This document shows positions 8,774-63,522 of a DNA stretch of 64,000 nt, piece by piece; the stretch's first letter is position 1; each line of letters opens with the position of its first letter. The notes below the pieces were generated by a model that was given only the letters and a program-made list of their open reading frames with translations, made no database searches and was not told where the DNA came from. Location of the stretch: assembly GCA_965198005.1 (NCBI GenBank), contig CBDAOI010000003.1, positions 672,001 to 736,000 on the forward strand, written 5' to 3'. This DNA comes from Spirochaetia bacterium. Lineage in GTDB: Bacteria; Spirochaetota; Spirochaetia; SZUA-6; Bin103. The position numbers and the translations under genes are program-made.

Positions 8774-9706
8774 TTAGACCGACCTGGCGGCAGCGTCACC
8801 GACACGGCCCCCACCACCCCGCAGCCGCGGGTCGAGCAGGTCGCGCATGGCATCACCGAACATGTTCAGACTGTACACGACGAGGGTCAGGCAGAGACCT
8901 GGCCAGATTGCGAGCCAAGGCGCCTGCTCCATGTACCGCCGGCCCTCCCAGCTGAGCAGAGTACCCCAGCTAGGAACCTCGGGAGGCAGACCGAATCCGA
9001 GGAAGCTCAGAGAAGCCTCACTCATAATCGCCCCCCCGATGTTGATGCTGAAGATGATGATCAGCGGCGCCCCGATATTGGGCAGGACGTGGCGGGTAAA
9101 TGCTCTCCATTTTGCAGAGCCAATCGACGCTGCCGCCTGAAAATAGTCGTTCTCCTTTACGGTGATAACGGCGCCTCTGACTACTCTCGAGCCACCGATG
9201 CCTCCTGATATCCCCAGGACCAGGATCATCTGGGGCACACCCTGCCCCAACATGGACATGATGGTCAGCAGCAGGAGCAGTCCCGGAAAAGCCATCCAGG
9301 CATCGACAAATCTCTGCACACCCAGGTCCAGCTTACCACCGAGGAATCCGGAAATGCCGCCGATGAGGACGGCGACGACGACATTGAGCGTGGTCGCGGA
9401 CAGCCCGACAAGCATCGAAAGACGAGCCCCGTAGATGAGGCGGCTCAAGTAGTCTCGCCCCAACTGGTCGGTACCCAGCAGATACCGGGCCGATGCGCCC
9501 TGCAGCCTGTCTACCAGGTGCATTTCAGTGTAGCCATAGGGAGCCAGAACATCGGCGAAGACGGCCACCAGAATCAACAGCAATACGATAATCCCGCAGG
9601 CAGTACCCAGTGGCTTCTCTCTCCACAGACTGACAAAGAAATCGGCCAGCCCGGTAGCTCTCCTTGGCTCGCTTGCTACTGTGCGTATACCCGAGGCGTT
9701 ACTCAT
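8774..9706 (-). CDS. Peptide/nickel ABC permease OppC/DppC (cassette 1)
   Basis: LLGTDQLGRD, RHVLPN, EASLSFLGFG, NMFGDAMRDLLDPR. Confidence 0.95.
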   Translation of the reverse strand: MSNASGIRTVASEPRRATGLADFFVSLWREKPLGTACGIIVLLLILVAVFADVLAPYGYTEMHLVDRLQGASARYLLGTDQLGRDYLSRLIYGARLSMLVGLSATTLNVVVAVLIGGISGFLGGKLDLGVQRFVDAWMAFPGLLLLLTIMSMLGQGVPQMILVLGISGGIGGSRVVRGAVITVKENDYFQAAASIGSAKWRAFTRHVLPNIGAPLIIIFSINIGGAIMSEASLSFLGFGLPPEVPSWGTLLSWEGRRYMEQAPWLAIWPGLCLTLVVYSLNMFGDAMRDLLDPRLRGGGGRVGDAAARSV

Positions 9707-9721
9707 GATCGCTGCTTTCTC

Positions 9722-10687
9722 TCATTGATAGCGGACTCTAGGATCCAAGAAAGGGTAGATCAGGTCGATCAGGAGATTGAACAGCACCACCGCGGTGCCG
9801 AAAAACAGGTTTACTCCGGAGACCACCGGGTAGTCTCTCTGCTCGAGCGCAAGCACCATGAGACGACCGAGCCCCGGCAGATTGAATATGTTCTCCATGA
9901 TAACGGCGCCACCCACCAGGATCGGCAACTGCAGACCGATCAGCGTGACAACCGGGATGAGGGCATTCTTGATGGCGTGCCGCATGACGACGACCCGCTC
10001 CCTCAGTCCCTTGGACCAGGCGGTCCTGATAAAATCCTGCCGGAGCACCTCCAGCATCATGGTGCGCGTCATCCGCATGGTGGCTGCAGCCGAGGCAGTC
10101 CCCAGAATCAGGCTGGGAATGAGGAGCACCCCCAGGTTCCCCAGCGGGTCTTCGGCGAACGGAACCCACAGCACCGGTGGGGACCAGCCCCACCAGAGTG
10201 CCGGGAACAGCATGACCATGAGTCCCAGCCAGAAGTTCGGCGTAGCCAGGCCGACGATGGCGATGGAGCGCCCCAGGTAGTCGGCGGCCGTATCCTGTCG
10301 AATCGCCGAGTAGATGCCGACGGGGAGGGCGATCAACAGCCCGATTACGATTGCCATGACACCAAGCTGAATGGTCAACGGCAATCTGCCTACTATCCTC
10401 TCCTCCACCGTCCAACCGCCAAGCAGTGATTCGCCAAGAGTGCCGTGCAGTAACATATTTCCTATCCAGCGTCCATACTGCACGTAGACAGGCACGTCTA
10501 ATCCCAGCATACGCTCAAGAGCTTCACGGTCAATCTCCGCGCCCCCGGCACCTAGCAGTATCATCTCAGAAACCATTCTGTCTATTATATCGCCGGGGAT
10601 GAAGCGGATCGAGAGAAATACGAGGACGGTCAATATGAACAGGGTGGGGATTATCAGCATTAACCGCCTGATGATATAGGCTCTCAT
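9722..10687 (-). CDS. Peptide/nickel ABC permease OppB/DppB (cassette 1)
   Basis: MRAYIIRRL, QDFIRTAWSKGL, RHAIKNALIP, RDYPVV, LDPRVRY. Confidence 0.95.
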   Translation of the reverse strand: MRAYIIRRLMLIIPTLFILTVLVFLSIRFIPGDIIDRMVSEMILLGAGGAEIDREALERMLGLDVPVYVQYGRWIGNMLLHGTLGESLLGGWTVEERIVGRLPLTIQLGVMAIVIGLLIALPVGIYSAIRQDTAADYLGRSIAIVGLATPNFWLGLMVMLFPALWWGWSPPVLWVPFAEDPLGNLGVLLIPSLILGTASAAATMRMTRTMMLEVLRQDFIRTAWSKGLRERVVVMRHAIKNALIPVVTLIGLQLPILVGGAVIMENIFNLPGLGRLMVLALEQRDYPVVSGVNLFFGTAVVLFNLLIDLIYPFLDPRVRYQ

Positions 10688-10701
10688 GTCACACCCCTCC
10701 T

Positions 10702-10926
10702 TGTCATTGCGAGCCCCGATTTATCGGGGCGCGGCACTCTCTTAAGGTGCGAATGACCCCTGCCAAGAAACTCGCCTCTCACCGTTTTTGGGGAGTCCAG
10801 AGGGGTGAAACCCCTTTGAAACGGGGGTTCAAGGGGGTGTCCCCCTTGATTCCGCCGAAAGGCGGAATCAAGAGTAATTTCAAATGGTTGCGTTTTCCGG
10901 ATTCCAGGTCTCCGCCCGGAATGACA
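10702..10926. repeat. Cluster of REP-like palindromes between SBP and oppB
   Basis: tgtcattgcgagccccgatttatcggggc; aggggtgaaacccct; tcaagggggtgtcccccttga; gattccgccgaaaggcggaatc; ends ggaatgaca, inverted relative to tgtcatt. Confidence 0.7.
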
Positions 10927-10954
10927 AATTGACCTCTCATTATTCAACGAGTAT

Positions 10955-10985
10955 GGAAAAATTGGGGGGCTTGAGCCCCCCAGTT
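10955..10985 (-). terminator. Stem-loop + U-tract after SBP gene
   Basis: ggggggc-tcaa-gcccccc then aattttt on - strand. Confidence 0.6.
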
Positions 10986-11027
10986 CCCTTAGACGTTTCA
11001 GTTATCCCCGAGAGTAACCAGCAAATA

Positions 11028-12839
11028 CTAATGACCCATTGCCTCCTTCAGCTCACTATCAATCCAGAGGCGGGCGAAAAGTGGAATACTGTCCCCGGTT
11101 GGGTCATTTTCACCGTCATAACCTATGATCCACGGCTGGGACACATTAAAACTTGGAACTCTCGGACCCGCGAACCACCAGTGATTCTCTATGAGGTACA
11201 TATTTGCCTCGTTGACCAGCCTCTTCTGCTCCTCAATGGTGGTAGCGGCTTCGGCGGCTTCATACATGGCGTCATAAACCGTGTCGTTGACGTTGGGGGG
11301 GTTCCATCCTGAGGCCGAGTAAGCTCCCGTTAACGGCAGAAGCGCGGGCTGATAGTCGGCGTTTGAAACTTGAGTAACCAGACCTTGCTGCTTATGCTCT
11401 CGCACAAGAGCCGTATAAGCAGTTCCGTCAACTACCTGCACCTCTACAGCAATGCCAATGGCACGCAAGTATTCGATGACTATCTGGTAATAGTCTAAAT
11501 CGAATGGCCCGTAGTGGTCATAGACGGTGCGGAATCTTACGCCGTCCGCGCCGCGAGGTAATCCAGCCTCATCAAGCAACGCTTCTGCCCCTTCCGGGTC
11601 ATAGGTATAGTATCTCTTGAGCTCTTCGGGCCAGTCTTCAAATGGGGTGAAATACCCGATAAGACCTGTCCCTATCTGCCCTGCAGGCGTCGTATCTGCC
11701 CAACCGTGGAAGTAGGTATCGTTAATTGTCTCAAGGTCGACTGCCATCTGTATTGCGCGGCGCACCGTGACGTCGTTCCAGGGTGGCATCTGCACGTTAA
11801 AAGTCATAGCCGTATCCGCACGAAATGAAAATGGCCACAGGTTCAGTTCGGGGTTGGTCCGCTGGAGGCTTACCGCCGTATCGATGCTCCTTATTATTGT
11901 GCCGCCCGCCCGACCGATGTAATCAGCCTTACCTGTACGCATTAACGCCAGATTTGTCGCTTGTTCCGTCGATATCAGGGACCTTATCTCGTCAACATAG
12001 GGCAGGCGGTTCTCGGGGTACTTTTCGTCGTAGCCCCAGTAGTCAGGATTCTTGGTATAGGTGAGGGAACTGCCCTCGACATGGTCAGTCAGCTCAAAGG
12101 GCCCGGTGCCGACCACGTTCCTCCAATCCGTAACGTCGCCGTATTGCTCGACTACCTCGCGGGCCATTATCCATCCGAGACTTCCAAGGAGGATTTCCTT
12201 CAGCGCTTCGAGGCGTATCGACTTCAGCTTAAAGACAACCGTCCATTTGTCGGTGGCCGTTATCGATTCAACATTCATCTTTTCGAGGGGATGAGCGGCA
12301 GCGGCAACATCAAAGCTAGGTTCGGCTTCACTGAAGTCGCCCAGGCCCAATATACGCTGAAAGCTATATTCTATATCCTCGGCAGTTAGCTCCCGACCGT
12401 TCACGGGTGGCTTGTTGTGCCAGTGAACGTCCTGGCGGATGTTGAAGGTATAGGTGAGGCCGTCCGGGGAAATATCCCAGCTTTCAGCCAGCCTCCCTGT
12501 TACGGCAGACAGAGGGACGAAACCTGTCAAAAAGTCAAATACGTCCCTATCTAATGCCCAGTTCCAGTAGCCTAGCTTCTCATTAACACCCGAGATAGTG
12601 TTTGTCGCGGTGTACGAGAAATAGGGGTCAATATTCTTACCGATGTTAGACTGGACTTGGGTGAATGTCCCGCCGTACTCCGGCGCGGTCACCACCTTGC
12701 CGTTGGTGGGGTCGGTCACATACTTCTTGTCGGCGGCGGCTGCCGAGCCCTCCTCTGCGCCACCCGCCCAGAGGCCGGTTGCGGTCAACACGAGGACCAA
12801 CGCAACCGCGAAGGTCATTCTAATTCTTACAATATTCAT
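11028..12839 (-). CDS. ABC substrate-binding protein, family 5 (cassette 1)
   Basis: Signal peptide ...TGLWAGGAEE, LAESWDIS, VGTGPF, KNPDYWG, VRRAIQMAVD. Confidence 0.95.
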   Translation of the reverse strand: MNIVRIRMTFAVALVLVLTATGLWAGGAEEGSAAAADKKYVTDPTNGKVVTAPEYGGTFTQVQSNIGKNIDPYFSYTATNTISGVNEKLGYWNWALDRDVFDFLTGFVPLSAVTGRLAESWDISPDGLTYTFNIRQDVHWHNKPPVNGRELTAEDIEYSFQRILGLGDFSEAEPSFDVAAAAHPLEKMNVESITATDKWTVVFKLKSIRLEALKEILLGSLGWIMAREVVEQYGDVTDWRNVVGTGPFELTDHVEGSSLTYTKNPDYWGYDEKYPENRLPYVDEIRSLISTEQATNLALMRTGKADYIGRAGGTIIRSIDTAVSLQRTNPELNLWPFSFRADTAMTFNVQMPPWNDVTVRRAIQMAVDLETINDTYFHGWADTTPAGQIGTGLIGYFTPFEDWPEELKRYYTYDPEGAEALLDEAGLPRGADGVRFRTVYDHYGPFDLDYYQIVIEYLRAIGIAVEVQVVDGTAYTALVREHKQQGLVTQVSNADYQPALLPLTGAYSASGWNPPNVNDTVYDAMYEAAEAATTIEEQKRLVNEANMYLIENHWWFAGPRVPSFNVSQPWIIGYDGENDPTGDSIPLFARLWIDSELKEAMGH

Positions 12840-12877
12840 ACGTATCTCCGTATGTAGATGTTTCGAGAGTATTGCGT

Positions 12878-13400
12878 AGCGGATTGCCGCTCCCTGGCTA
12901 CTCTAACGCCCGCAACCGCGGGCGCGCCCGCAAACGCGGACGGCCAGTCAGAGTCAAATTCCTGAAAGCGCGCGGCGTGTGACTCAGCGGGTTCACCCCG
13001 GGCTCACGCCGCGCGCGCGTGCGGTTCTTTCAGTATCATCTTCACCTCCTTCTCGGGGCACAGGGTGCCGTGCCAGATGGCTGACGTAAGATGGGATCCG
13101 CGTGCGCGCCCCATCATGCAAACGCCCACCGCTCGGCGGAGGTCGGGACCTGCGTCACAACGCCACGCGGGGCGGTGGTCGGCCGAGCAACGCATGTGGT
13201 TGACCGGCGACGTGGGCGGTCGGTTCTGTGACGGTGAGTTGGGGGGCGGGGATCCAGGACCGCTGCGGTCGCAGCCGGCCGCTACCCCGGTGCTGAAGGC
13301 GACGGCGTGCGCGGGGGCACGTACGGGGCGATCAGCCGGAGCGGTTAGTTGTTTCTCGGTTCGAAAAAGTGTGTGTGTGTGTGTGGGGGGGGGGGGGTAG
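12878..13400 (-). promoter_or_regulatory. Leader A, copy 1: ~520-nt conserved 5' leader of SBP gene
   Basis: Colinear, highly similar copy at 60195-60740, also upstream of an SBP gene. Confidence 0.75.
13004..13039 (-). CDS. Putative leader peptide MILKEPHARAA
   Basis: SD AAGGAGGTGA; 3 copies in window; stop codon inside 12-bp GC stem. Confidence 0.55.
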   Translation of the reverse strand: MILKEPHARAA

Positions 13401-13461
13401 GAAGCATCGGTTGCGTCACCACCAACCGGTCACTGCGCTGACTGTCGTCGTGGCGCATCAT
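13345..13461 (-). CDS. Putative polyproline uORF MMRHDDSQRSDRLVVTQPMLPTPPPPHTHTHFFEPRNN
   Basis: Same frame and C-terminus as 60696-60803 across a different-length C tract. Confidence 0.5.
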   Translation of the reverse strand: MMRHDDSQRSDRLVVTQPMLPTPPPPHTHTHFFEPRNN

Positions 13462-14128
13462 CCTCATCCGTTCGATCCCCGAACTCCCTATCGTTTCACG
13501 GTCGCCCAATGATATCAAGCGCGGACTCCGGCGCTTCCGGCCGCCCGCCAGCGTCGCCGCCACCGGACACCGCCAACCCGTCACTGCGCTGCCTGTCGTC
13601 ATGGCGCTTCATCACCGATCCGTCGAACCCCAGGCGAGGCACGTTAGCATAGGGGCCGCGCGCCGTCAACGACTCGTCGGGGTCACCGAAGGTCACCGCC
13701 AACCGGTCACCGCGCTGACTGTCATCATGGCGTTTCATCACCGATCCGTTGAATCGTGAGCTCGAAGTATGGGGCCCAGCGCAAGAAACGTCAACAGCGA
13801 TTCTGGCCTCGTGCACCTTACCTCGCCCGGCTGTGCAAACGGTTGATGTTGCGCGCGTCACCAACCGGTCACTGCGCTCACTGTCGCCATCGCGCCTCAT
13901 GACCATCCGTTCGATCCCAAAACTCCCTATCGTCACAGGCTCGCCTGACCATGTCAAGCGCGGACTCCGGCCGTTCCGGCCGCCCGTCAGCGTCGCCGCC
14001 ACCGGAGGTTGTGACGTTGCGGGCACCGCCAACCGTCCACTGCGCTGACTGTCATCATGGCGCTTCATCATCGATCCGTCGAACCGCAGCCGAGGCAAGC
14101 TTGCTACTGGGCTGGGTCATGTCGTCAC
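13418..14128 (-). repeat. Tandem array of 5 promoter-containing units (periods 151/126/162/168 bp)
   Basis: Conserved ~60-bp core (ccaaccggtcactgcgctgactgtcatcatggcgcttcat); -35/-10 pairs TTGATA-17-AACGAT, TTGACG-17-TAACGT, TTGACG-17-CATACT, TTGACA-17-GACGAT, plus one degenerate. Confidence 0.85.
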
Positions 14129-14479
14129 CCATACACATGCGAGCATAGACCAGCGCGAGAGGCGTGGCAAGCGCTTTGGGCAGCGTGGGCAGCGTGCACC
14201 GCTTCTCGGTGAACGGCTGGTAGAGGGGCAGAGTGTCATAAGCTCAAGCCCTCCGAATGTGAAATGCGACCATACCCACCTGTTGGCCCACCGAGTGAAT
14301 GCACGGCCCAATACTATAACTTATTGTAGGTGATGTAGTTAGCACCGTCAAGCAGCCCGGTGCGATGGGGTGCATTCCGTCTGTGTGGTAGCGCACGGGA
14401 CCGACAAGAGCGGTGTCACCGAGATCGAGCATGGCGGCCAGCGCGGCCAGGGAACCGCCAACTCCGCCGGCGATGGGCG

Positions 14480-14509
14480 TTGACACCGAAGAAGCCGCGC
14501 GGATATGTT
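14480..14509 (+). promoter_or_regulatory. sigma70-like promoter of rpn gene
   Basis: TTGACA-18-TATGTT, 15 nt before ATG 14525. Confidence 0.5.
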
Positions 14510-14524
14510 CGCCATCGGGTCGTC

Positions 14525-15559
14525 ATGGCTGACGAGCGGGCAGCACAGCAACCGGACGGTGGCGCATCGGAGACGGCGGTCAGCCAGCCGCACGACAAGT
14601 ACTTCCAGCGCGTGTTCTCGAACGCGAAGGACGCGGCCAGTCTGCTGCGCACCTGTGTGCCGGGCGCGCTCGCCGACACCTTGAAGTGGTCGACGCTGAG
14701 CCTGCTGCGGGGTCGCTTCGTGGATGACGACTGGCGGCGCAACGAGACCGATATGCTGTATTCGGTGGAGCGGGAGGGTACGGAGCCGGCGGTGCTGGTG
14801 TACGTACTGCTGGAGCATCAGTCGACGCCGGACCCGTGGCTGCGGCTGCGGTTGCTCGGCTACTGCGTACAGGTGTGGCAGGAGTGGCGGCGGAAGCACC
14901 GGAACGAGGAACGATTGCCGCTGCTGGTGCCGCTGGTATTCTACCAGGGAGCGCGACGGTGGGAGTATACGCGGGAATTTGCGGACTTGGTAACGGAGGC
15001 GGCGCCGGAGTGGCGGTGGGTGCCGAGGTTCGAGCATCTGCTGATCGACCAGACGGAGAAGAGCGCGGAATCGGTGACGGGCGCGGTAGCGGCGCGGCTG
15101 TTGCAGATCGCGATGATGGCGGCGTTTCGGGAAGCGCCGGGGAAGTTGCTGGAACGGGCGACGCGGTTGATCGGGGAATTGTACCGCGCAGCGGGGTTTG
15201 AGGAAGTGACGCAGCACGTGGAGTACGTGCTGGCGACGCAGCCGGAAGCACAGCGGAAGCTGTTTGCGGAGGCGTTGCAGAGGAACGTGCCGGGCCGCGG
15301 AGGAGAGGTGATGAATTACGTGGAAGAAATGATCGAGCGAGGGCGCCGGGAAGGGCGTCAGGAAGGGCGCCGGGAAGGCCGCCAGGAAGGGCGCCGGGAA
15401 GGCCGCCGGGAAGGGCAGGTGCGAGCCATCGAGGGGTTCGTGGCACGAGATATATCGTGGTCCACCATCGAAGAGGCCACGGGCATCGACGAGGCCACAT
15501 ACCGGCGCCTCAGGCAGCGAATCGACGCGGAAGACAACGGGGCAGATTCCACCGTCTGA
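14525..15559 (+). CDS. Rpn/YhgA-like PD-(D/E)XK nuclease (putative transposase)
   Basis: QPHDKYFQ, ETDMLYSV, LLEHQSTPD, LVPLVFYQG, C-terminal (EGRR/EGRQ)n repeats. Confidence 0.9.
   Translation: MADERAAQQPDGGASETAVSQPHDKYFQRVFSNAKDAASLLRTCVPGALADTLKWSTLSLLRGRFVDDDWRRNETDMLYSVEREGTEPAVLVYVLLEHQSTPDPWLRLRLLGYCVQVWQEWRRKHRNEERLPLLVPLVFYQGARRWEYTREFADLVTEAAPEWRWVPRFEHLLIDQTEKSAESVTGAVAARLLQIAMMAAFREAPGKLLERATRLIGELYRAAGFEEVTQHVEYVLATQPEAQRKLFAEALQRNVPGRGGEVMNYVEEMIERGRREGRQEGRREGRQEGRREGRREGQVRAIEGFVARDISWSTIEEATGIDEATYRRLRQRIDAEDNGADSTV
15311..15559 (+). CDS. Putative intragenic RpnS antitoxin (in-frame internal start)
   Basis: GGAGGAGAGG immediately before in-frame GTG-ATG at 15308/15311. Confidence 0.6.
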   Translation: MNYVEEMIERGRREGRQEGRREGRQEGRREGRREGQVRAIEGFVARDISWSTIEEATGIDEATYRRLRQRIDAEDNGADSTV

Positions 15560-21680: not shown

Positions 21681-21898
21681 GCGCGGCACCATCGATCCGC
21701 GTGGCGCACAGCCGCCACGCATCCGTGCGTCCACCGGCCGACCCCGTCGGCCGCCACTTCCACCAGTCCACACCAACATGCGTAGCGACCCTTGCCGGCC
21801 GCCACCACGCGTGGCGTGCGCAGGCTTGCCCTTCGGCGCGGCGCGCGCGCGTCAACAAAAGGAGGCATGGGATGAAACACCCGACCGGGTACGACTAA
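21674..21898 (+). CDS. Putative second uORF (74 aa, GTG overlapping uORF1 stop) or 8-aa MKHPTGYD from ATG 21872
   Basis: AAGGAGG SD before ATG 21872; TAA/TAG stop conserved; upstream frame open in both copies. Confidence 0.5.
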   Translation: MLSAAPSIRVAHSRHASVRPPADPVGRHFHQSTPTCVATLAGRHHAWRAQACPSARRARVNKRRHGMKHPTGYD

Positions 21899-22014
21899 CT
21901 CGGACCCCAGGATGTCGCCCTTCGCTCGACTATGAGAGCGCGCTCGCGGGAGCGAGCGTTGCGAGGGGCCGGCAGTGGAATCAGTGCTCTCGAAACTATT
22001 GTAAGGAGATCTCA

Positions 22015-26420: not shown

Positions 26421-26959
26421 CGCGCTCCACCCCAGCACCGGCAGCCGAACGCGCCGAAGCGCTTGCTACATCTCTCGCGCTGGTCTAAGCTGCAGGTGTA
26501 TGGGTAACGACATGACCCAGCCCAGCCGCCGCGTAGCGCGGAGGCACCCGACTACCCGACTACCCGACTACCGCGCACCGCTAGCCGCTCAGCCGACCAC
26601 ACAGCGGCCTACCGCTCGGCGCCGGTGCTGAGCGCAGCATCGATCCATGTGGCGCACAGTCGCCACGCCTCCGTGCGTCCAGCGGCCGACCCCGTCGGCC
26701 GCCACTTCCACCAGTCCACACCAACATGCGTAGCGACGCTTGCCGGCCGCCACCACGCGTGGCGTGCGCAGGCATGCCCTTTCGGCGCGGCGCGCGCGCG
26801 TCAAAGGAGGCATGGGATGAAACACCCGACCGGGTACGACTAGCTCGGACCCCAGGATGTCGCCCTTCGCTCGACTATGAGAGCGCGCTCGCGGGAGCGA
26901 GCGTTGCGAAGGGCCGGCAGTGGAATCAGTGCTCTCGAAACTATTGTAAGGAGATCTCG
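26421..26959 (+). promoter_or_regulatory. Leader B, copy 2 (promoter 26463-26491; uORFs 26500-26631 and 26625/26817-26843)
   Basis: Direct repeat of 21480-22014. Confidence 0.8.
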
Positions 26960-32182: not shown

Positions 32183-33055
32183 GTGCAGCGAGGCTAGCTG
32201 TTGAACTTGCGGGTGAAGGTCCCGCCGGCGCAAATCCCAGTGTGGCGCCGTAGTTATATCCGGCAGCCGACAGGGGCGACTCTGACGGCTGAAAGCCCGG
32301 AAGTAAACGTACTTAGGGAAGGGCGCGAGCCCGACCGACCAACCTAGGAGGCTAACAACCAGAAGGGCCGTAGCGAGAGCGAACGGACGAATCGCCGAAA
32401 TCCCCCCCAGCGGGAAGTTGGTTGCTGGATATTGGAGTGCCAAGGGTTTCCTCCCCTTACCCGATGGCCAGTGCTGCTGCGGAAGATACTGGGAAGTGCA
32501 CGCAGCAGGCTCCCGGCGGAAGTTGAAGGCGGCAATTCTGGATAGTTCAACAGTGAAAGCCCGGAAGGTGTGCTGCTCAGGCAGGATGATCCTTGAATGC
32601 CAAGGACCGGACCTATAACCGTCGGATGGCGGGAAGTGGAACGGAGAGTAGCAGACTGGCGGATGAGGCCGGCAAGCGAAGATGGCCGCGACAACATAAC
32701 GCGGCTGGAGCGAGGGCCTCAGGGCTCAGGAGGAGCCGGTGGAAATGCACCGCCCGGACACTGAGCCGGGGAACGGTGGATACAGCCGTTGGCTCGAAGC
32801 GATGGTCAAACCGGGGACAGCGCCCACGTAGCAAGGGATCAGGCTGAGCGTGGTTGCTATCGTACCGGGAAGGGCAGTCGTGAGCTTAAGGGCACCTGAG
32901 CTTTGAGCCGTACCGTGGGAAAACCCGACGTACGGCATCTCAGGGGGGGCGCTGGAAACGTGACCTATGGTGGAATTGTGAACCCATCTCGCTACCGAAA
33001 GGGCGGGACTGGAAACCCTCCACCTACGGGTGCGCGCGCCAGCGCTCTACCCGAC
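32183..33055 (+). ncRNA. ORF-less group II intron, copy 1
   Basis: 5' GTGCAG; domain V gagccgtac...gtacggcatctc with AGC triad; long domain VI ending ctctacccgac; tccccc (32401) complementary to 5' exon ggggga. Confidence 0.8.
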
Positions 33056-33924: not shown

Positions 33925-35043
33925 TAAGTTTGGTCCTCCCCCGGAGGGTAGGTCAAGGTGTATTCGGGTGATTGTCAGAGCACTGCTCCCTCTTAAAAAC
34001 AGGTGGCGGTAAAAGGGGGTGGGGGTCCGGGGGAGTGCAGCGAGGCTAGCTGTTGAACTTGCGGGTGAAGGTCCCGCCGGCGCAAATCCCAGTGTGGCGC
34101 CGTAGTTATATCCGGCAGCCGACAGGGGCGACTCTGACGGCTGAAAGCCCGGAAGTAAACGTACTTAGGGAAGGGCGCGAGCCCGACCGACCAACCTAGG
34201 AGGCTAACAACCAGAAGGGCCGTAGCGAGAGCGAACGGACGAATCGCCGAAATCCCCCCCAGCGGGAAGTTGGTTGCTGGATATTGGAGTGCCAAGGGTT
34301 TCCTCCCCTTACCCGATGGCCAGTGCTGCTGCGGAAGATACTGGGAAGTGCGCGCAGCAGGCTCCCGGCGGAAGTTGAAGGCGGCAATTCTGGATAGTTC
34401 AACAGTGAAAGCCCGGAAGGTGTGCTGCTCAGGCAGGATGATCCTTGAATGCCAAGGACCGGACCTATAACCGTCGGATGGCGGGAAGTGGAACGGAGAG
34501 CAGCAGACTGGCGGATGAGGCCACCAAGCGACGATGGCCGCGACAACATAACGCGGCTGGAGCGAGGGCCTCAGGGCTCAGGAGGAGCCAGTGGAAATGC
34601 ACCGCCCGGACACTGAGCCGGGGAACGGTGGATACAGCCGTTGGCTCGAAGCGATGGTCAAACCGGGGACAGCGCCCACGTAGCCAAGGATCAGGCTGAG
34701 CGTGGTTGCTATCGTACCGGGAAGGGCCGCCGTGAGCTTGCGGGCACCTGAGCTTCGAGCCGTACTGTGGGAAAACCCGACGTACGGAATCTCAGGGGGG
34801 GCGCTGGAAACGTGGCCTACGGGCGCGCGCGCCAGCGCTCTACCCGACGGGGGCGCTTGATCCTGTGGACATTGTGGATAACTTCCCTCACCGGATTGTG
34901 CTCCCGCTTGTGCTCTGCCCTCGGAACCCGCAATTGCGACGTGCTCCCCATGCCCGCTACGCCATCTGCGGTCCGGTCGCCGCGACCCCGCCGCAGGCCG
35001 GCGCCGGCGTCCGACCATCCAGTGCCGAGTGCGGTCGTACCTC
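33925..35043 (-). mobile_element. Second, diverged IS3 3' remnant with the same intron
   Basis: Flanks homologous to copy 1 (aggtggcggtaa...; tcctgtggacattgtggataac; EVRPHSAL stub at ~35020-35043). Confidence 0.7.
34035..34848 (+). ncRNA. ORF-less group II intron, copy 2 (shorter domain VI)
   Basis: Near-identical to 32183-33055; ~59 nt missing in the DVI loop. Confidence 0.8.
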
Positions 35044-48147: not shown

Positions 48148-49078
48148 CTACGCCTGCTTCTTCACCGGCTCGCGGCCGAGGCGCCCCCCGCCACCCCGCA
48201 GCCGCGGGTCGAGCAGGTCCCTGATCGCATCGCCGAACATGTTCAGGCTAGTAGACCAGCACGGTAAGGAAGATGCCGGGCCAGAACGCCAGCCACGGCG
48301 CCTGCTCCATGTACTCGCGCCCTTCGCGGCTCAGCATCCCACCCCAGCTGGGAACCTCCAGTGGCAGACCGAAGCCGAGAAAGCTCAGCGAGGCCTCACT
48401 GATGATTACCGCACCGATGTTGATACTGAAGACGATGATCACCGGCGCGACGATGTTGGGCACGACGTGGCGAATCAACGTCATCCCCCTCGATGACCCA
48501 ATCGCCTCGGCCGCCTGAAAGTAGACATTCTCCTTGATGGCGATGACGGCGCTGCGGACCACCCTCGAGCCGCCGATGCCGCCGGTTACGCCGAGGACCA
48601 CGATGGTCTGCACCAGCCCCTGCCCGACGATGGACATGATGGTCAACAGGATCAGCAGTCCGGGTATCGACACCCAGGCATCGACGAATCGTTGGGTCGC
48701 CAGGTCGACCTTACCGCCAACGAATCCGGAGGCACCGCCGATCACCAGGGCGACCACGACGTTGAGGGCGGTCGCGGCCAGGCCAACGGTCAGCGAAACA
48801 CGCGCGCCGTAAATCAGGCGGGTCAGCAGGTCGCGTCCGACATGATCGGTGCCGAGCAGAAAGCGCGCCGAGGGGCCGCTGAGCCGATCGGCCAGGCTCA
48901 TCTCCAGCATTCCGTAGGGAGCCAGCACGTCGGCGAAGATGGCGGTCAGAACGAACAGCACGATGATGATCCCACTGGCGGTTCCCAGGGGTTTCTCCTT
49001 CCACAGCCGAGCGAAGAAGTAGGCGGCGCCGGTGCGGGTCTTCGGCTCGCTCACCGCGGTGGTCTGTCTGTCACTCAT
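48148..49078 (-). pseudogene. OppC permease (cassette 5) with 1-nt insertion near 3' end
   Basis: Nearly identical to 61644-62573; aggctagtag vs aggcagtac. Confidence 0.85.
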
Positions 49079-50027
49079 AGCGGATTCTCGGATCGAGGAA
49101 CCCGTACGTCAGGTCGATGAGCACGTTCCCCACCACGACGAAGCTGCCAAACAGCAGGTTGATTCCCGAGACCACTGTGTAGTCTCGGTCTTCGAGAGCA
49201 TTCAGCATCAGACGACCCAGCCCAGGCAGATTGAAGATGTTCTCCATGATGACCGAGCCGCCCACCAGGATGGGCAGCTGCAAGCCCACCAGCGTAATCA
49301 CCGGGATGATGGCGTTCTTGACCGCGTGCCGCACGACCACCGCCCGCTCCTTCAGACCCTTGGACCAGGCGGTGCGGACATAGTCCTGCCGCAGCACCTC
49401 CAGCATCATGGTGCGTGTCATCCGCATGGTGGCCGCGGCCATCGCCGTTCCCAGGATGGCGCCGGGAATGATGAACATCCCCAGGTTCCCCAGCGGGTCG
49501 GCGCTGAACCGGATGAGGCGCATCGGTGGTGACCAGCCCCACCAGATTGCCGGGTAGAGCATGACCATCACCGCCAGCCAGAAGTTGGGCGTTGCCAGGC
49601 CGATGACGGCAACCGAGCGTCCCACGTAGTCGGCGGCGGTATCCTGGCGGATCGCCGAGTAGATGCCCACCGGCAGGGCGATCAGCAGCCCGATCACCAG
49701 CGCCGTCACGCCGAGCTGAATCGTCACCGGCAACCTACCCGCTATCTTCTCGTTTACGGAGAAGCGGCCGAGCAGGGATTGACCCAGGCTCCCGTGCAGC
49801 ACGATGTCGCCCAGCCAGCGCGCGTACTGCACGGGAATGGGCTGGTCCAAGCCGAGCTTGCGCTCGAGAGCTTCGCGGTCGATCTCGCCGGCGGTGAAGG
49901 CGTACTCTTCCTGCATGGCGTCGATGACATCGCCGGGGATGAACCGGACCAGCAGAAAGACGATCATGCTCAGGATCAGGAGCGTGGGGACGATCAGCAG
50001 CACCCTTCTGATGACGTACGCTCTCAT
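49071..50027 (-). CDS. OppB permease (cassette 5)
   Basis: Family motifs; one residue differs from 62566-63522. Confidence 0.95.
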   Translation of the reverse strand: MRAYVIRRVLLIVPTLLILSMIVFLLVRFIPGDVIDAMQEEYAFTAGEIDREALERKLGLDQPIPVQYARWLGDIVLHGSLGQSLLGRFSVNEKIAGRLPVTIQLGVTALVIGLLIALPVGIYSAIRQDTAADYVGRSVAVIGLATPNFWLAVMVMLYPAIWWGWSPPMRLIRFSADPLGNLGMFIIPGAILGTAMAAATMRMTRTMMLEVLRQDYVRTAWSKGLKERAVVVRHAVKNAIIPVITLVGLQLPILVGGSVIMENIFNLPGLGRLMLNALEDRDYTVVSGINLLFGSFVVVGNVLIDLTYGFLDPRIRYE

Positions 50028-52391: not shown

Positions 52392-53438
52392 CTACACACC
52401 GGCAACGGACGGGCGGTACTCCAAGCGGCTCGTGCGCCCCGAGCGCAAGAGCAGGCCCTTGTCGACCAGGACCTTGAGGTCACGCTGCAGGGTCCTGCGC
52501 GGAGTTCCCGCACACAGCCCCTCGAGTTCGACGATGGTGGTCCGGCCGCCGTCAAGCACATGCCCCAGGATAAGTCCCTGGCGAGCCGTCAGGCCGTGCC
52601 GGCTGGCGAGCAGGTCGCGCCGGATGGCCAGTTCTCCTCGTCGCTTCACCTCCGTGAGCTGGGTAGCGAGTCCCTCGGTGAAGAATTCGATCCAGCCGGT
52701 CATGTCCATGTTCGCTTGACGTACGCCCTGAAGCGCTCCGTAGAAAGCCAACCGGTCGCGGTCGTAGTACTCGCTGATGGTAAAGAGTCGCTTGAAGTCG
52801 TAGCCGGCGCGGTAGAGACACAGCGTCGACAGAAGTCGGGAGGTGCGTCCGTTGCCATCGAGGAACGGATGGATGTGCACGAGCTGGAACTGGGCAATGG
52901 CACTTACGATGACGGGATGGATATCGCGATGACCGTTCAGCCAGGCCACCAGGGCGCGCATGAGATCCGGCACCTCGCCGGGCGGTGGAGGCGTGTAGAT
53001 CGTCTCACCGGTGGCCGAATTCACTACGTAGTTCTGCACTCGCCGGTATTCCCCCGGCGCAGCCGCACCGCCTCGAACGCCGTCTACCAGTTGCCGGTGG
53101 ATCTCGCGGATGAGCCGCTCCCTGATCGGTGTTCCTGCATTGAAATGAGTGCTCACGAACTCGAACGCACGGCGATAGTTCAACAACTCGCGCGCGTCGT
53201 CCGGATCGGCACCGGGAACCTCCTCTCCTCCCAGTACCCGCGCAGCTTCGTCGAGCGTGAGTCGAGTGCCCTCGATATGTGTCGTGTGATGCGCTTCGAG
53301 CAGGAAGGCTCGCGAGCGCATCGCACCGATCCAGTCCTCCGAAAGCGTGGCCGCCTCCAGGAATCCGCGAGCCCGCTCGATCTGCGTGAGAGCTGAGGCA
53401 ACGGCGTTCGTGATGGAGAATCGCGGAGTGAATGTCAC
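52392..53438 (-). CDS. Fic protein with N-terminal inhibitory motif and C-terminal wHTH
   Basis: TTHIEG (S/TxxxEG), [27 protein letters not shown]. Confidence 0.9.
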
Positions 53439-58709: not shown

Positions 58710-60194
58710 TCAGAATCCCATTTCCCGCTTCAGATCCTGATCGATCCAGAGGCGCGAGTAGATCAGGGAACGGTCCATGTCGCCGGGGTCGGCCTCGCCG
58801 TTGTAGCCCTTCACCCATGGCCAGAACACGTTGAACTGCGGCACGCGCGCGCCCCAGATCGCAACGTGCTGACGGTTGAGATAATCTGAGGCCTCCCTCG
58901 AGAGCCTCTGGCGCTCCTCCAACGTGGTGGCCGCCTGCACGCGGCTGACCATCTCGTCGTAGACCGGATCGTTGAGGAATGTATGGCTCAATCCCGCGTA
59001 GCTGACGTGACTCAGGAGCTGACCCGTGGGATTCCATTCGTATCCAGAAACCAACATGCGGAGGTCGTAGTCCTTCGCGGCGCGCCGAGCGTTCACTACA
59101 GCCCCCTCGAGATAGGAGATCGTCACATCAATGCCGATCTCTCGCCAGCCCGCCGCCAGGAGCTCATTCCAGCCTTGGTCGCCCCACGTTGGTGTAGAGA
59201 TCATCTCCATCTCGAAGCGGGTCCCGTCGGCGCCGCGCGATAAGCCGGCTTCGTCGAGCAGCCTCTCGGCCTCGGCCGGATTGTAGGAATACGCCGCCTT
59301 GAGGTCCGCCGGCCAGTCCTCGTAGCGAGTCATGTAGGGATACAGGGCACGCCCCATCCACCCCTGTGGCTGGGTGACTGCATAGCCCTTGAAGTAGGTC
59401 TCGCCCCAGCCCTCGATGTCGAGGGCCAACTGCAGGGCGCGGCGCACGCGGACGTCGTCCAAGGGGGGCTTGCTCGTGTTGACTAGGGGGGACGTCTCAG
59501 ATCGGTACGAGTAGGCCTCCACGACGATGTCGGGGTTGGTGCGCTGCAGGCTCTCCATCTGGTCGATTGACGTGATCTGCGCATTGCCATGGAAGCCGAG
59601 GAAATCGACCCTTCCGGAGCGCAAAGCCGCCAGACGCGTCTGCGACTCCGGCATCACCTGCATGTTGATCGTATCGATGTAGGGCAGCCGGTTCTGTGGG
59701 AACTTCTCGTCGAAGCCCCAGTAGTCAGGGGCCTTGTCCCAGGTGATGGAGCTGCCTTCCACCCAGTCGGTAAGCTCATAGGGTCCGGTGCCTACCAGGT
59801 TTTGCCAATCGCCGATATCGACTCCGGTCCCCGCCTGAATCACCTCTGGCGGATAGATGAACAGCACGTTTTGCGTCAGGAGCGTCTTCAGCGCGTCGAG
59901 GTTCTGCTCCGCCAGCTTGAAGACGACGGTGTTGCCCTGGGCCGTTACGGAGGTGATGCCGAGGTCGTCCACGGACGCCACGGCGGCGACGCCTTCCGGT
60001 ACCTCGGTGAAGCCGCTGCCGAGCCCGAGGTAGCGGTGGAAGTTGAACTCCACATCCTTCGCGGTCAGCGCGCGGCCGTTCATCGGCGCCTTGTCGTGCC
60101 AGTTCACGCCCTGACGGATGTGAAAGACGATGGTGGTCGGGTCGGGCTGCTCCCAGCGCTCGGCCAGGCGGCCGACGATGATGTCGTCGGGCGA
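58710..60194 (-). pseudogene. Family-5 SBP lacking start and signal peptide (cassette 6)
   Basis: PDDIIVGRLAERWEQ fused directly to leader A at ~60195. Confidence 0.85.
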
Positions 60195-60740
60195 AGCGGA
60201 TTGCCGCTCCCTGGCTACTCTCACGCGCGCAACGCTTGCTGCCAGTCTGAGTCAAATTCTCAGCAGCGCGCGGCGTGTGACTCACCGGGTTCACCCGGGC
60301 TCACGTCGCGCGCGCGTGCGGTTCTTTCAGTATCATCTTCACCTCCTTCTTGGGGCACAGGGTGCCCTGCCAGATGCCTGACGTAAGATGGGATACGCGT
60401 GCGCGGCCCATCATGCAAACGCCCACCGCTCGGCGGGCGTCGGGACCTGCGTCACAACGCCACGCGGGGCGGTGGTCGACGAAGGAGCGAGTCTGAATGG
60501 CCGGCAACGCCGGCGGTGGGTTTTGCTGGCAGTCGGTCGCGGGCGGGGATCCGCGACGGTTGCGGTCGCCGGGAAGGGCGCGCGCGGTCTGCATGCCGGT
60601 TCGGCGATGGACGGAGCCGGTGCCACCGACAGCTACGGCGGTGGTGAAGGCGACGGCGTGCGCGGGGTCGCGTAGGGGGCGATCAGCCCGAGCGGTTAGT
60701 TGTTTCTCGGTTTGAAAAAGTGGGGGGGGGGGGGGGGGGT
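60195..60740 (-). promoter_or_regulatory. Leader A, copy 2 (uORF MILKEPHARAT 60301-60336; G18 tract 60722-60739 on +)
   Basis: Homologous to 12878-13400. Confidence 0.75.
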
Positions 60741-60803
60741 ATGATGCAACTGTCGCGTCACAGCGAACCGATCACTGCGCTGCCTGTCATCGTGACGCTT
60801 CAT
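60696..60803 (-). CDS. Putative polyproline uORF MKRHDDRQRSDRFAVTRQLHHTPPPPPHFFKPRNN
   Basis: Manual translation; same termini as 13345-13461. Confidence 0.5.
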   Translation of the reverse strand: MKRHDDRQRSDRFAVTRQLHHTPPPPPHFFKPRNN

Positions 60804-61245
60804 GACCATCCGTCAAACCCCAGGTGAGGCACGCTAGCATAGGCGCGGCGCGCCGTCAACGACTCGTGGGGGTCACCGGGGTGAGCGAAGGTCACCGGCA
60901 ACCCGTCACTGCGCTGACTGTCATCATGGCGCTTCATCGGCATCCGTCGACCCCAAGCCAAGCATGATAGCGTGGGCGCGGCGCACTGTCAACGACTCGG
61001 AGCTCACCAAACGTGACCGCCAACCGGCCACTGCGCTGACTGTCATCATGGCGTTTCATCACCGTTCCATCGGACCCCAAGCGAAGCAAGCTTCGCTCTG
61101 GACGCGGCCACCCTGTCAACGACTCGGACGTCACCGACCGTGACCGCCAACCGGTCACTGCGCTGACTGTCGTCATGGCGCGTCATCATCGATCGGTCGA
61201 ACCCCAAGCGAGGCAAGCATGCTATGGACGCGACCACCCTGTCAA
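60759..61245 (-). repeat. Tandem array of 4 promoter-containing units (periods 134/122/127 bp)
   Basis: Same core as 13418-14128; TTGACG-17-TAGCGT, TTGACA-17-TATCAT, TTGACA-19-GAAGCT, TTGACA-18-CATGCT. Confidence 0.85.
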
Positions 61246-61614
61246 CAGCGCCGACCCGTGCAGCCCCGCCGCCTCGAACCGGGCGACCATGGTGTCGGCC
61301 TCCGCCAGGCTGGCAGCCATCGGCTTCTCGCACACGACATGCGCGCCATGATCGGCGGCCAACAGCGACAGTGCTGCGTGGCTCGACGCATGCGTCGCGA
61401 TGGCGACGATGTCGAGATCCTCCGTGCGGAACATCTGCGCCGCGTCGGCGTAGCTCGTGACGCCCGGCCAATCCTGCTCGGCCCGTGCGCGCGCCTCCGC
61501 TACCTCATCGGCGACCGCGACCAGGCGGATGCGCTCCAGCCCAGCCATCACCTCCGCGTGGCGGGCCCCGAGGTTGCCGTAGCCGACCCCGGCGCCGCGA
61601 TACCTGCTTTCCAT
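61246..61614 (-). pseudogene. Gfo/Idh/MocA oxidoreductase, N-terminal half
   Basis: GVGYGNLG, LVAVAD, HVVCEKPMA. Confidence 0.85.
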
Positions 61615-61643
61615 TCGGCGAGCGGTAGCTGGGCGAAGCCGAG

Positions 61644-62573
61644 CTACGCCTGCTTCTTCACCGGCTCGCGGCCGAGGCGCCCCCCGCCACCCCGCAGCCG
61701 CGGGTCGAGCAGGTCTCTGACCGCGTCGCCGAACATGTTCAGGCAGTACACCAGCACGGTCAGGAAGATGCCGGGCCAGAACGCCAGCCACGGCGCCTGC
61801 TCCATGTACTCGCGCCCTTCGCGGCTCAGCATCCCACCCCAGCTGGGAACCTCCAGTGGCAGACCGAAGCCGAGAAAGCTCAGCGAGGCCTCACTGATGA
61901 TTACCGCACCGATGTTGATACTGAAGACGATGATCACCGGCGCGACGATGTTGGGCACGACGTGGCGAATCAACGTCATTCCCCTCGATGACCCAATCGC
62001 CTCGGCCGCCTGAAAGTAGACATTCTCCTTGATGGCGATGACGGCGCTGCGGACCACCCTCGAGCCGCCGATGCCGCCGGTTACGCCGAGGACCACGATG
62101 GTCTGCACCAGCCCCTGCCCGACGATGGACATGATGGTCAACAGGATCAGCAGTCCGGGTATCGATACCCAGGCATCGACGAATCGTTGGGTCGCCAGGT
62201 CCACCTTACCGCCAACGAAGCCGGAGGCACCGCCGATCACCAGGGCGACCACGACGTTGAGGGCGGTCGCGGCCAGGCCAACGGTCAGCGAAACCCGCGC
62301 GCCGTAAATCAGGCGGGTCAGCAGGTCGCGTCCGATATGATCGGTGCCGAGCAGAAAGCGCGCCGAGGGCCCGCTGAGCCGATCGGCCAGGCTCATCTCC
62401 AGCATTCCGTAGGGAGCCAGCGCGTCGGCGAAGATGGCGGTCAGCGCGAACAGCACGATGATGATCCCACTGGCGGTTCCCAGGGGTTTCTCCTTCCACA
62501 GCCGAGCGAAGAAGTAGGCGGCGCCGGTGCGGGTCTTCGGCTCGCTCACCGCGGTGGTCTGTCTGTCACTCAT
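61644..62573 (-). CDS. OppC permease (cassette 7)
   Basis: Family motifs. Confidence 0.95.
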   Translation of the reverse strand: MSDRQTTAVSEPKTRTGAAYFFARLWKEKPLGTASGIIIVLFALTAIFADALAPYGMLEMSLADRLSGPSARFLLGTDHIGRDLLTRLIYGARVSLTVGLAATALNVVVALVIGGASGFVGGKVDLATQRFVDAWVSIPGLLILLTIMSIVGQGLVQTIVVLGVTGGIGGSRVVRSAVIAIKENVYFQAAEAIGSSRGMTLIRHVVPNIVAPVIIVFSINIGAVIISEASLSFLGFGLPLEVPSWGGMLSREGREYMEQAPWLAFWPGIFLTVLVYCLNMFGDAVRDLLDPRLRGGGGRLGREPVKKQA

Positions 62574-63522
62574 AGCGGATTCTCGGATCGAGGAACCCGT
62601 ACGTCAGGTCGATGAGCACGTTCCCCACCACGACGAAGCTGCCAAACAGCAGGTTGATTCCCGAGACCACTGTGTAGTCTCGGTCTTCGAGAGCATTCAG
62701 CATCAGACGACCCAGCCCAGGCAGATTGAAGATGTTCTCCATGATGACCGAGCCGCCCACCAGGATGGGCAGCTGCAAGCCCACCAGCGTAATCACCGGG
62801 ATGATGGCGTTCTTGACCGCGTGCCGCACGACCACCGCCCGCTCCTTCAGACCCTTGGACCAGGCGGTACGGACATAGTCCTGCCGCAGCACCTCCAACA
62901 TCATGGTGCGTGTCATCCGCATGGTGGCCGCGGCCATCGCCGTTCCCAGGATGGCGCCGGGAATGATGAACATCCCCAGGTTCCCCAGCGGGTCGGCGCT
63001 GAACCGGATGAGGCGCATCGGTGGTGACCAGCCCCACCAGATTGCCGGGTAGAGCATGACCATCACCGCCAGCCAGAAGTTGGGCGTTGCCAGGCCGATG
63101 ACGGCAACCGAGCGTCCCACGTAGTCGGCGGCGGTATCCTGGCGGATCGCCGAGTAGATGCCCACCGGCAGGGCGATCAGCAGCCCGATCACCAGCGCCG
63201 TCACGCCGAGCTGAATCGTCACCGGCAACCTACCCGCTATCTTCTCGTTTACGGAGAAGCGGCCGAGCAGGGATTGACCCAGGCTCCCGTGCAGCACGAT
63301 GTCGCCCAGCCAGCGCGCGTACTGCACGGGAATGGGCTGGTCCAAGCCGAGCTTGCGCTCGAGAGCTTCGCGGTCGATCTCGCCGGCGGTGAAGGCGTAC
63401 TCTTCCTGCATGGCGTCGATGACATCGCCGGGGATGAACCGGACCAGCAGAAAGACGATCATGCTCAGGATCAGGAGCGTAGGGACGACCAGCAGCACCC
63501 TTCTGATGACGTACGCTCTCAT
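62566..63522 (-). CDS. OppB permease (cassette 7)
   Basis: Family motifs. Confidence 0.95.
   Translation of the reverse strand: MRAYVIRRVLLVVPTLLILSMIVFLLVRFIPGDVIDAMQEEYAFTAGEIDREALERKLGLDQPIPVQYARWLGDIVLHGSLGQSLLGRFSVNEKIAGRLPVTIQLGVTALVIGLLIALPVGIYSAIRQDTAADYVGRSVAVIGLATPNFWLAVMVMLYPAIWWGWSPPMRLIRFSADPLGNLGMFIIPGAILGTAMAAATMRMTRTMMLEVLRQDYVRTAWSKGLKERAVVVRHAVKNAIIPVITLVGLQLPILVGGSVIMENIFNLPGLGRLMLNALEDRDYTVVSGINLLFGSFVVVGNVLIDLTYGFLDPRIRYE

Follow-up and report, generated by a model that had tools for sequence, protein, structure and literature searches.

The window analysed here, a 64-kb stretch of DNA, derives from a spirochaete genome of 4.9 Mb and 66% GC, and several RNA runs in which the stretch is found are labelled sponge metagenome. 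Two copies of a long leader lie on its minus strand ahead of SBP_bac_5 sequences (copy A, 12840..14128; copy B, 60195-61245). In both, the order and coordinates given in the original prediction hold: tandem promoter units, a poly-Pro upstream ORF (uORF), and a uORF of 11 codons that is preceded by a strong SD and overlaps a hairpin. That prediction described the uORF anatomy correctly for both copies and missed a frame switch and a pseudoknot. The features of copy A are as follows.

14323..14351, minus strand: upstream putative promoter of sigma70 type, TTGACG-17-TACAAT (10/12 consensus matches)
13420..14170, minus strand: putative promoter array of five promoter and core units (-35 boxes at 14170, 13957, 13794, 13669 and 13518)
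13345..13467, minus strand: head of the leader ORF in its short, predicted OFF form (40 aa), spanning the C tract and stopping at the conserved box
13369..13397, minus strand: C13 tract (13397-13385) with an (AC)n run behind it; the repeat that sets the frame, and the junction between modules
13339..13348, minus strand: conserved box 3' of the tract, where two frames stop, there or ~13 nt further on
13004..13366, minus strand: long open frame spanning the C-rich leader and in phase with the 11-codon uORF
13004..13050, minus strand: strong SD (13050-13043) and mini-ORF MILKEPHARAA* (13039-13004), with an NTG start and synonymous bias
12950..13018, minus strand: GC hairpin H1 (13018-12968), overlapping the mini-ORF; z -3.4 for 12830-13055, nearly invariant with little covariation
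12860..12952, minus strand: P1/P2/P3 structured RNA, a covariance-model match homologous to the Leader-B-type pseudoknot
12837..12854, minus strand: 6-bp hairpin that covers both the SD and the start codon of the SBP, present in about half of the class A copies
8774..12839, minus strand: predicted regulated cassette of SBP_bac_5 (12839-11028), OppB-type (10687-9722) and OppC-type (9706-8774) genes, with no ATPase

Every core in the copy A array carries a GGA-led ATG that opens a frame of the MKRHDD type, and the first promoter is of the same type as that of Leader B. The ATG frame of the first unit stays open for 190 codons through four units (13496-14068, minus strand) and stops just upstream of the start in the last unit. 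The H1 loop (12986-12980) is complementary to 12956-12950, with which it could form an H-type pseudoknot. A gene for an Rpn/YhgA-like transposase (PF04754; 14360-15559, plus strand) lies divergent from copy A.

Copy B repeats this arrangement with a damaged 3' end.

60740..61245, minus strand: putative promoter array of four units (-35 boxes at 61245, 61119, 60992 and 60859)
60696..60803, minus strand: head of the leader ORF, short form of 35 aa, through a C18 tract (60739-60722)
60301..60699, minus strand: long open frame, in frame with the mini-ORF MILKEPHARAT* (60336-60301)
60195..60315, minus strand: H1 and the 5' part of the P1/P3 RNA, at a junction that cuts into the middle of an SBP gene
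58710..60224, minus strand: 5'-truncated SBP_bac_5 frame without a signal peptide (profile match and inspection)

The claimed succession of leader and SBP stands here as an order of elements, but the SBP is truncated, and the fusion has lost the signal peptide, the RBS hairpin and the P3 3' strand. The truncated SBP core groups with SBPs that carry other leader classes, and from its sequence copy B looks like an aberrant product of shuffling. Its promoter array cuts the 3' end of a Gfo/Idh/MocA oxidoreductase fragment (61222-61791, minus strand). Two near-identical oppB/oppC pairs (48248-50027 and 61644-63522, minus strand) share 99-100% identity over 300-nt blocks.

Leader B is found on the plus strand in two copies.

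21872..21996, plus strand: Leader B copy 1, with mini-ORF MKHPTGYD* (21872-21898) and P1/P3 RNA (21907-21996)
26852..26941, plus strand: P1/P3 RNA of Leader B copy 2 (covariance-model match)

Elsewhere in the window, group II intron D1-D4-4 matches occur at 32207-32378 and 34059-34230 (plus strand), ~1.85 kb apart, and a Fic/DOC family ORF (52392-53438, minus strand) lies upstream of an SBP cassette.

A whole-genome count returned 81 mini-ORF/hairpin blocks, 75 tails, 54 boxes and 143 promoter units across 107 loci, numbers that place the leader far beyond chance. At 88 of the 107 leader loci an SBP_bac_5 gene follows within 900 nt. The genome holds 145 near-full SBP_bac_5 genes, 70 of them with the leader class of copies A and B, as against 8 oligo_HPY ATPase matches; the transporter cassettes within the window lack ATPases. 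Among 40 relatives searched, leader DNA was found in 7/10 genomes of the same genus and 0/13 of the sister genus, with a single 25-nt leader match outside the family (E 5e-4). Promoter units were found in 6/10 same-genus genomes, so that the search in relatives proposed with the original prediction places the module in 6-7 of the ten. Exact motif matches among GTDB genomes number 17, all of them in MAGs titled Spirochaetia bacterium, and the named SBP homologues come from Spirochaetaceae. Two same-genus genomes (L110/G009 and L111/G010) have one close SBP each, preceded by a single promoter and a short leader from which the motif is absent; the promoter of these orthologous single-copy SBPs has the same consensus as the promoter units. 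From these sequence comparisons, the long leader appears to accompany the expansion of the SBPs. A literature search, which took in few subscription papers and main texts rather than supplements, returned no paper on the leader or the lineage.

The promoter units were examined in 141 anchored instances, 117 of which have a TTGA-type -35 box. A -10 box with A2 and T6 is present at 17-18 nt in 111 of these 117 units (59/65 distinct variants), compared to a background of 931/7,006 (13%), and this signature is kept though the spacers are of several unrelated types. The proposal of tandem promoter units is borne out by these figures, and the units are predicted to function as promoters. Further promoter modules are also tandemly amplified (C1:76700-77000 and C4:2270600-2270900), indicating that promoter stacking arose more than once. 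The unit core shows a weak codon-position signal. The spacing from unit start to anchor, counted over 106 matches minus six that are not units, is 21 nt (86), 33 nt (11), 51 nt (2) or 20 nt (1), so that indels are of +12 or +30 with one exception of -1. The units were also considered as small structured RNAs, for which the consensus fold reaches only -1.1 kcal, and as a repeat protein, for which spacings are not confined to multiples of 3 and no Pfam match was found; both readings were rejected.

The proline run of the first uORF is encoded by a homopolymer of 0-28 C that may be read in any frame and gives poly-Pro whichever frame is used. Of 102 tracts, 95 are entered by an open frame that begins with ATG (60% in shuffled sequence), and on this count an initial reading of the poly-Pro uORF as not conserved was dropped. 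An SD-like word accompanies 61 of these frames (26% when shuffled), although the SD of the head is weak. Of 95 runs of C10 or longer, 69 precede an SBP by no more than 900 nt on its sense strand and none on the antisense strand, while 59/143 SBP starts have no run of C7 or longer within that distance. Tract lengths differ between paralogues whose 25-nt flanks are identical (28/16; 7/7/10; 7/10). The C/G ratio is ~1.5 across the 200 nt that follow the tract.

Downstream of the tract, a stop closes two of the frames within 60 nt, and the remaining one is open for 200-450 nt. This layout of two short frames and one long, where long means covering at least half the distance from tract to SBP, is present in 69/83 leaders of the genome and 24/27 leaders of relatives, compared to 8% of shuffles. 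Among the 37 distinct class A leaders, 33 have a long frame that stays open as far as the mini-ORF, as opposed to 0 and 3 for the other frames and 17% in shuffles, and the three frames hold 5, 76 and 56 stops in ~3,350 codons each. The frame also runs in phase with MILKEP in 25/37 leaders and 16/28 distinct lengths. The class A leaders of relatives behave alike: 11/11 are open, 10/11 (7/8 distinct leader lengths) are in frame with the mini-ORF, and the stops number 0, 23 and 21. Among 35 leaders, 22 long frames end exactly at the mini-ORF stop, 12 no more than 20 nt before the mini-ORF start or beyond it, and one 74 nt short. In a homology-anchored test of ten tracts the homologous frame was open in 10/10 and each other frame in 0/10. 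Since copies share ancestry, all of these leader counts overstate independence.

The layout extends across leader classes. In class C the long frame ends mostly at or near the mini-ORF. Class B is of unrelated sequence and has no mini-ORF; there the long frame overlaps the SBP ATG in 6/7 leaders examined and otherwise runs into the SBP frame. Only the openness of the long frame seems to be kept, as its peptide has a pN/pS of 0.96 (25 leaders) and no Pfam match. Addition of one base to the copy A tract yields an ORF of 154 aa in all, in place of 40 aa as assembled, and one further C in copy B gives 167 aa in place of 35 aa. Both window copies thus have the head in a short frame. As assembled, the head is in the long frame in 20/37 leaders of the genome, with 32 further leaders ambiguous, and in 8/17 leaders of relatives, with 7 more ambiguous; the excess over one third is not significant in the latter (p 0.17). 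A single SD-led head frame is lacking in 32/69 leaders of the genome, and single ON/OFF calls are uncertain because homopolymer lengths in assemblies can be wrong.

We consider it reasonably probable that the leader is a phase-variable leader-ORF attenuator. The anatomy, frame conservation, covariation and shuffling on which this model draws are features of the sequences themselves; translation of the leader, tract slippage in living cells, the part played by Rho and the assignment of phases to ON and OFF are inferred. A leader of 0.5-1.3 kb would start from at least one sigma70 promoter, and on it ribosomes would initiate at the weak SD in the last promoter unit and proceed into the poly-C tract, whose length would be altered by replication slippage. 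In two of the three phases they would meet a stop within ~60 nt and leave 200-450 nt of C-rich RNA bare, allowing Rho to load and to terminate the transcript ahead of the SBP-oppB-oppC cassette (OFF). The remaining phase would let ribosomes that stay coupled to RNA polymerase translate the whole leader (ON), as far as the mini-ORF stop within H1 in classes A and C, or directly to the start of the SBP in class B. The mini-ORF and pseudoknot could add a second, downstream layer of control, and the modules are reshuffled by recombination among ~140 paralogous cassettes. Deployed genome-wide, such an attenuator would probably depend on Rho, and each operon would probably be switched on and off at random.

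Rho is present in the genome and the leader is C-rich, two features of a mechanism of the tnaC type. The structure z of the C-rich leader behind the tract is -0.5; the RNA is therefore not unusually unstructured and not ideal for Rho loading, which counts against the model. RNA contigs from four runs in three studies cover leader and SBP, although contigs do not resolve strand, ends or level; the bin 14316-14549 is empty in two of the four runs. Other mechanisms were set aside on gene content in the 90% complete genome: CsrA-type GGA hairpins or a CsrA sponge (no PF02599 match) and ribosome shielding against RNase J (RNase J not found). RfaH-type antitermination was likewise rejected, the genome having a single NusG.

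The C tract might instead be a recoding or proline sensor, on which ribosomes stall and slip along the CCC run according to the supply of Pro-tRNA or EF-P and so set a graded share of the long frame. We regard this as unlikely. In its favour, tRNA-Pro slips on CCC-C, the tract reads poly-Pro in every frame, and the genome encodes EF-P. Sensing of Pro codons has been shown for mgtP (PMC3641672). On the other hand, neither tract length (0-28) nor entry frame is conserved, which also leaves the earlier suggestion that the first uORF senses Pro codons unsupported; a pure C run would be needless since proline has four codons; and some copies without a tract retain the long frame.

The phase-variable attenuator has to be set against the structured RNA near the SBP start as well. 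By covariance modelling, the hairpin region ends in a covarying RNA with the predicted shape of a pseudoknot, in which, for the Leader B type, P1 and P3 are predicted crossed helices and P2 is inserted. Leader B had been described as following the same logic with unrelated sequence. The sequences are in fact related: a covariance model built solely from Leader-B-type sequences matches copy A at 12860-12952 (32.6 bits, E 2.9e-7). Double changes are seen at 9 of 26 pairs, and 0-1 of 500 shuffles reached four of five covariation measures, the fifth (further pair types) not rising above shuffles. P3 lies outside the model; its strands give 219/245 Watson-Crick cells in 35 held-out matches in relatives (195 +/- 4 when shuffled) and 158/168 in the spirochaete genome (137 +/- 4), figures that are inflated by the relatedness of the sequences. 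In an all-column covariation scan of class A the copies were nearly invariant. The P3 3' strand is anti-SD-like and sits just upstream of the SBP SD.

The P1/P3 model matches 63 sites in the spirochaete genome and 6/10 same-genus genomes; it gave two weak matches among 13 sister-genus genomes and had no match among 37 further genomes from the order. In the sister genus (L087 and L088) only the 3' half of the motif is found, placed immediately after a promoter and ahead of a distant SBP; from its sequence this could be an ancestral form or a weak match. All 47 P1/P3 loci that were checked contain an SBP match, and three metagenome matches also precede SBP-like starts. A strong SD is present in 49/58 Leader-B-type leaders (11.5% background), the peptides differ, and 18 leaders have no ATG or GTG at the usual distance. 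In Rfam 15 no match was found for the leader or for nine Leader-B-type motifs, at gathering and E-value thresholds, and resemblances to SAM-I, THF, glycine, ZTP and TPP elements and to ops/JUMPstart found no support. The covarying RNA is thus a candidate for a new motif as modelled here, which motif catalogues in supplements could already hold. It resembles riboswitch classes in being a covarying structure in the mRNA leaders of one gene family.

These properties, namely the pairs with double changes, the covariation of P3 in held-out relatives, the anti-SD-like strand adjoining the SD and the lack of an Rfam match, would also suit a scheme in which the pseudoknot by the SBP RBS is the real regulator, sensing a ligand or protein, while the long ORF only covers the leader and the short-frame copies are decayed or mis-assembled. 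To this we assign a rather small probability. Class B leaders lack the P1/P3 motif and have the same layout of tract and frames, the stops of both other frames right behind the tract are conserved, in two data sets roughly half of the heads read in a short frame, and the motif is confined to one genus bar two partial matches. The cargo SBPs are only ~50% identical, which makes a single ligand unlikely.

Recombination exchanges promoter modules, leaders and SBP cores between cassettes. Upstream regions are mosaics of promoter modules, one of which (20 copies) joins 11 downstream clusters at the C tract and spans all proximal classes (9 A, 3 B, 7 C and 1 unclassed). Near-identical SBP cores carry different leader classes. 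A FastTree phylogeny of SBP cores without their N-termini (143/145 cores, two being too short), in which long-branch joins are unreliable, requires 38 changes of leader class versus 47.9 +/- 3.2 for shuffled labels, and 2/300 label shuffles were as low. Third-position GC has a median of 0.65 in SBP cores, a mean of 0.77 in their first 50 codons and a median of 0.74 in long ORFs, a hint that foreign cores may have been fitted behind native 5' blocks. A broader interpretation, which we hold only tentatively and with the odds somewhat against it, is a combinatorial system in which ~140 SBP cores, leader classes and promoter modules would be reshuffled, with the poly-C junction and the conserved SBP N-terminal block as joints, and each cassette would bear a random frame switch, its poly-C leader ORF gating Rho, and a regulatory pseudoknot RNA not described before. 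If so, sibling cells in the sponge would display different transporter repertoires served by a small shared set of ATPase pairs.

Duplication also raises the idea that the leaders are passenger DNA, co-duplicated with their cassettes, with C runs arising as slippage or assembly artefacts and open frames from GC-rich, stop-poor sequence. The 66% GC of the genome, the tandem cassette duplications, the pN/pS near 1 and the service of copy B to a broken gene are all in keeping with it. We nevertheless judge it very improbable, as the frame is kept over many indels (16/28 distinct lengths here and 7/8 in relatives), three leader classes show one and the same layout, the -10 signature persists although the spacers are unrelated, and compensatory base changes are found.

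The attenuator model places the decision upstream of the mini-ORF, and the properties of the mini-ORF itself bear on this. An NTG start is found in 81/81 copies, and codons 2-6 have 54 synonymous versus 14 non-synonymous variant copies, a bias confined to those codons; in 14/81 copies the ORF already ends at codon 7. From one leader class to another the small-uORF peptides are unrelated (M*, MQN*, MKSPYD*, MILKEP*). H1 has a median energy of -35 kcal. In the 59 of 64 copies that fit the search pattern, the H1 loop is complementary to a 7-mer located 8-11 nt further on, with little covariation. The hairpin of the original prediction is present and overlaps the 11-aa uORF, but it has no canonical U-tract: at least four T in the 8 nt behind H1 are found in 19/67 copies, and a terminator scan returned no intrinsic terminator on the minus strand. 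In a nested-fold model without pseudoknots, a ribosome on the mini-ORF shifts the opening energy of the SBP RBS by more than 1 kcal in 7/64 copies. Occlusion of the mini-ORF's own RBS amounts to 8.4 kcal versus 9.3 in shuffled controls; it is not specially occluded, so the switch must act upstream of it. A programmed frameshift from mini-ORF to SBP was rejected on inspection, as no frame leads there.

The two-uORF scheme originally put forward after Salmonella mgtCBR, a poly-Pro sensor followed by an 11-aa uORF that unfolds a terminator or RBS hairpin, is the least probable of the alternatives, for while both uORFs exist, the mini-ORF has synonymous bias and overlaps an arm of the -35 kcal hairpin, and Leader-B-type leaders favour a strong SD (49/58 versus 11.5%), the ORFs are linked by frame, a U-tract terminator is absent, the RBS is unchanged by a ribosome footprint in 57/64 copies (nested-fold model, without pseudoknots), and the peptides are unrelated across classes. 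The two uORFs are not independent, as the alternative frame of the first runs on into the second. Of the portable translation-sensing module that had been proposed, what survives is an element that is portable, linked to translation and tied to SBPs; the pair of independent uORF sensors does not.

Several known systems share parts of the proposed attenuator. H-type pseudoknot riboswitches (SAM-II, SAH, preQ1 and others) place crossed helices next to the SD; unlike these, the P1/P3 RNA has no Rfam 15 match, is restricted to a genus and has no ligand-linked gene context. In Escherichia coli tnaC, the leader ribosome decides the access of Rho to C-rich RNA, and some spirochaete copies similarly end in Pro-stop. 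The spirochaete leader differs from tnaC in having no conserved arrest peptide (pN/pS 0.96, unrelated mini-peptides), and its input would be a DNA repeat.

In Campylobacter jejuni, poly-G homopolymers give ON/OFF frameshifts with the tract inside the gene (bioRxiv 10.1101/2022.11.09.515450); here the tract lies in an upstream ORF and the SBP frame is intact. The mgtCBR leader (mgtM/mgtP; PMC3641672) likewise is long, contains short ORFs and Pro codons, and has its downstream RBS covered by a hairpin. In mgtP the Pro codons are fixed in both position and frame and there are two independent signals, whereas the spirochaete tract is a variable homopolymer (0-28 nt, variable entry frame) and the ORFs are joined by frame.

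The closest parallel is the pil1/pil3 system of Streptococcus gallolyticus, in which GCAGA pentamers, one promoter and a U-tract terminator ~40-50 nt away occur at two loci (PMC3894217). In both organisms a simple repeat within the leader ORF (in 95/102 tracts here) sets the stop of translation, the long forms extend up to or into a hairpin that closely precedes the genes under control, and the peptide sequence is immaterial; repeat length toggles a short ORF against one that reaches the structure (40/154 and 35/167 aa in copies A and B). The spirochaete leader differs in its C homopolymer, in having one long frame of three with 200-450 nt between short and long stops, in a second, SD-led mini-ORF and pseudoknot, in its tandem promoters, and in its some 70-80 loci per genome. 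It also has no canonical terminator with a U tract for the long ORF to open, and Rho would take that role. Repeat-switched leader peptides have been described for two pilus loci of one Streptococcus (PMC3894217), and the same logic would here operate on some 70-80 transporter operons per genome, through a homopolymer, a longer relay frame and probably Rho. If this is true, an uncultured symbiont would hedge its nutrient uptake or surface display on a large scale with its transporter genes unbroken, and the switch suggests how 145 binding proteins could be handled by a cell that has about four ATPase pairs.
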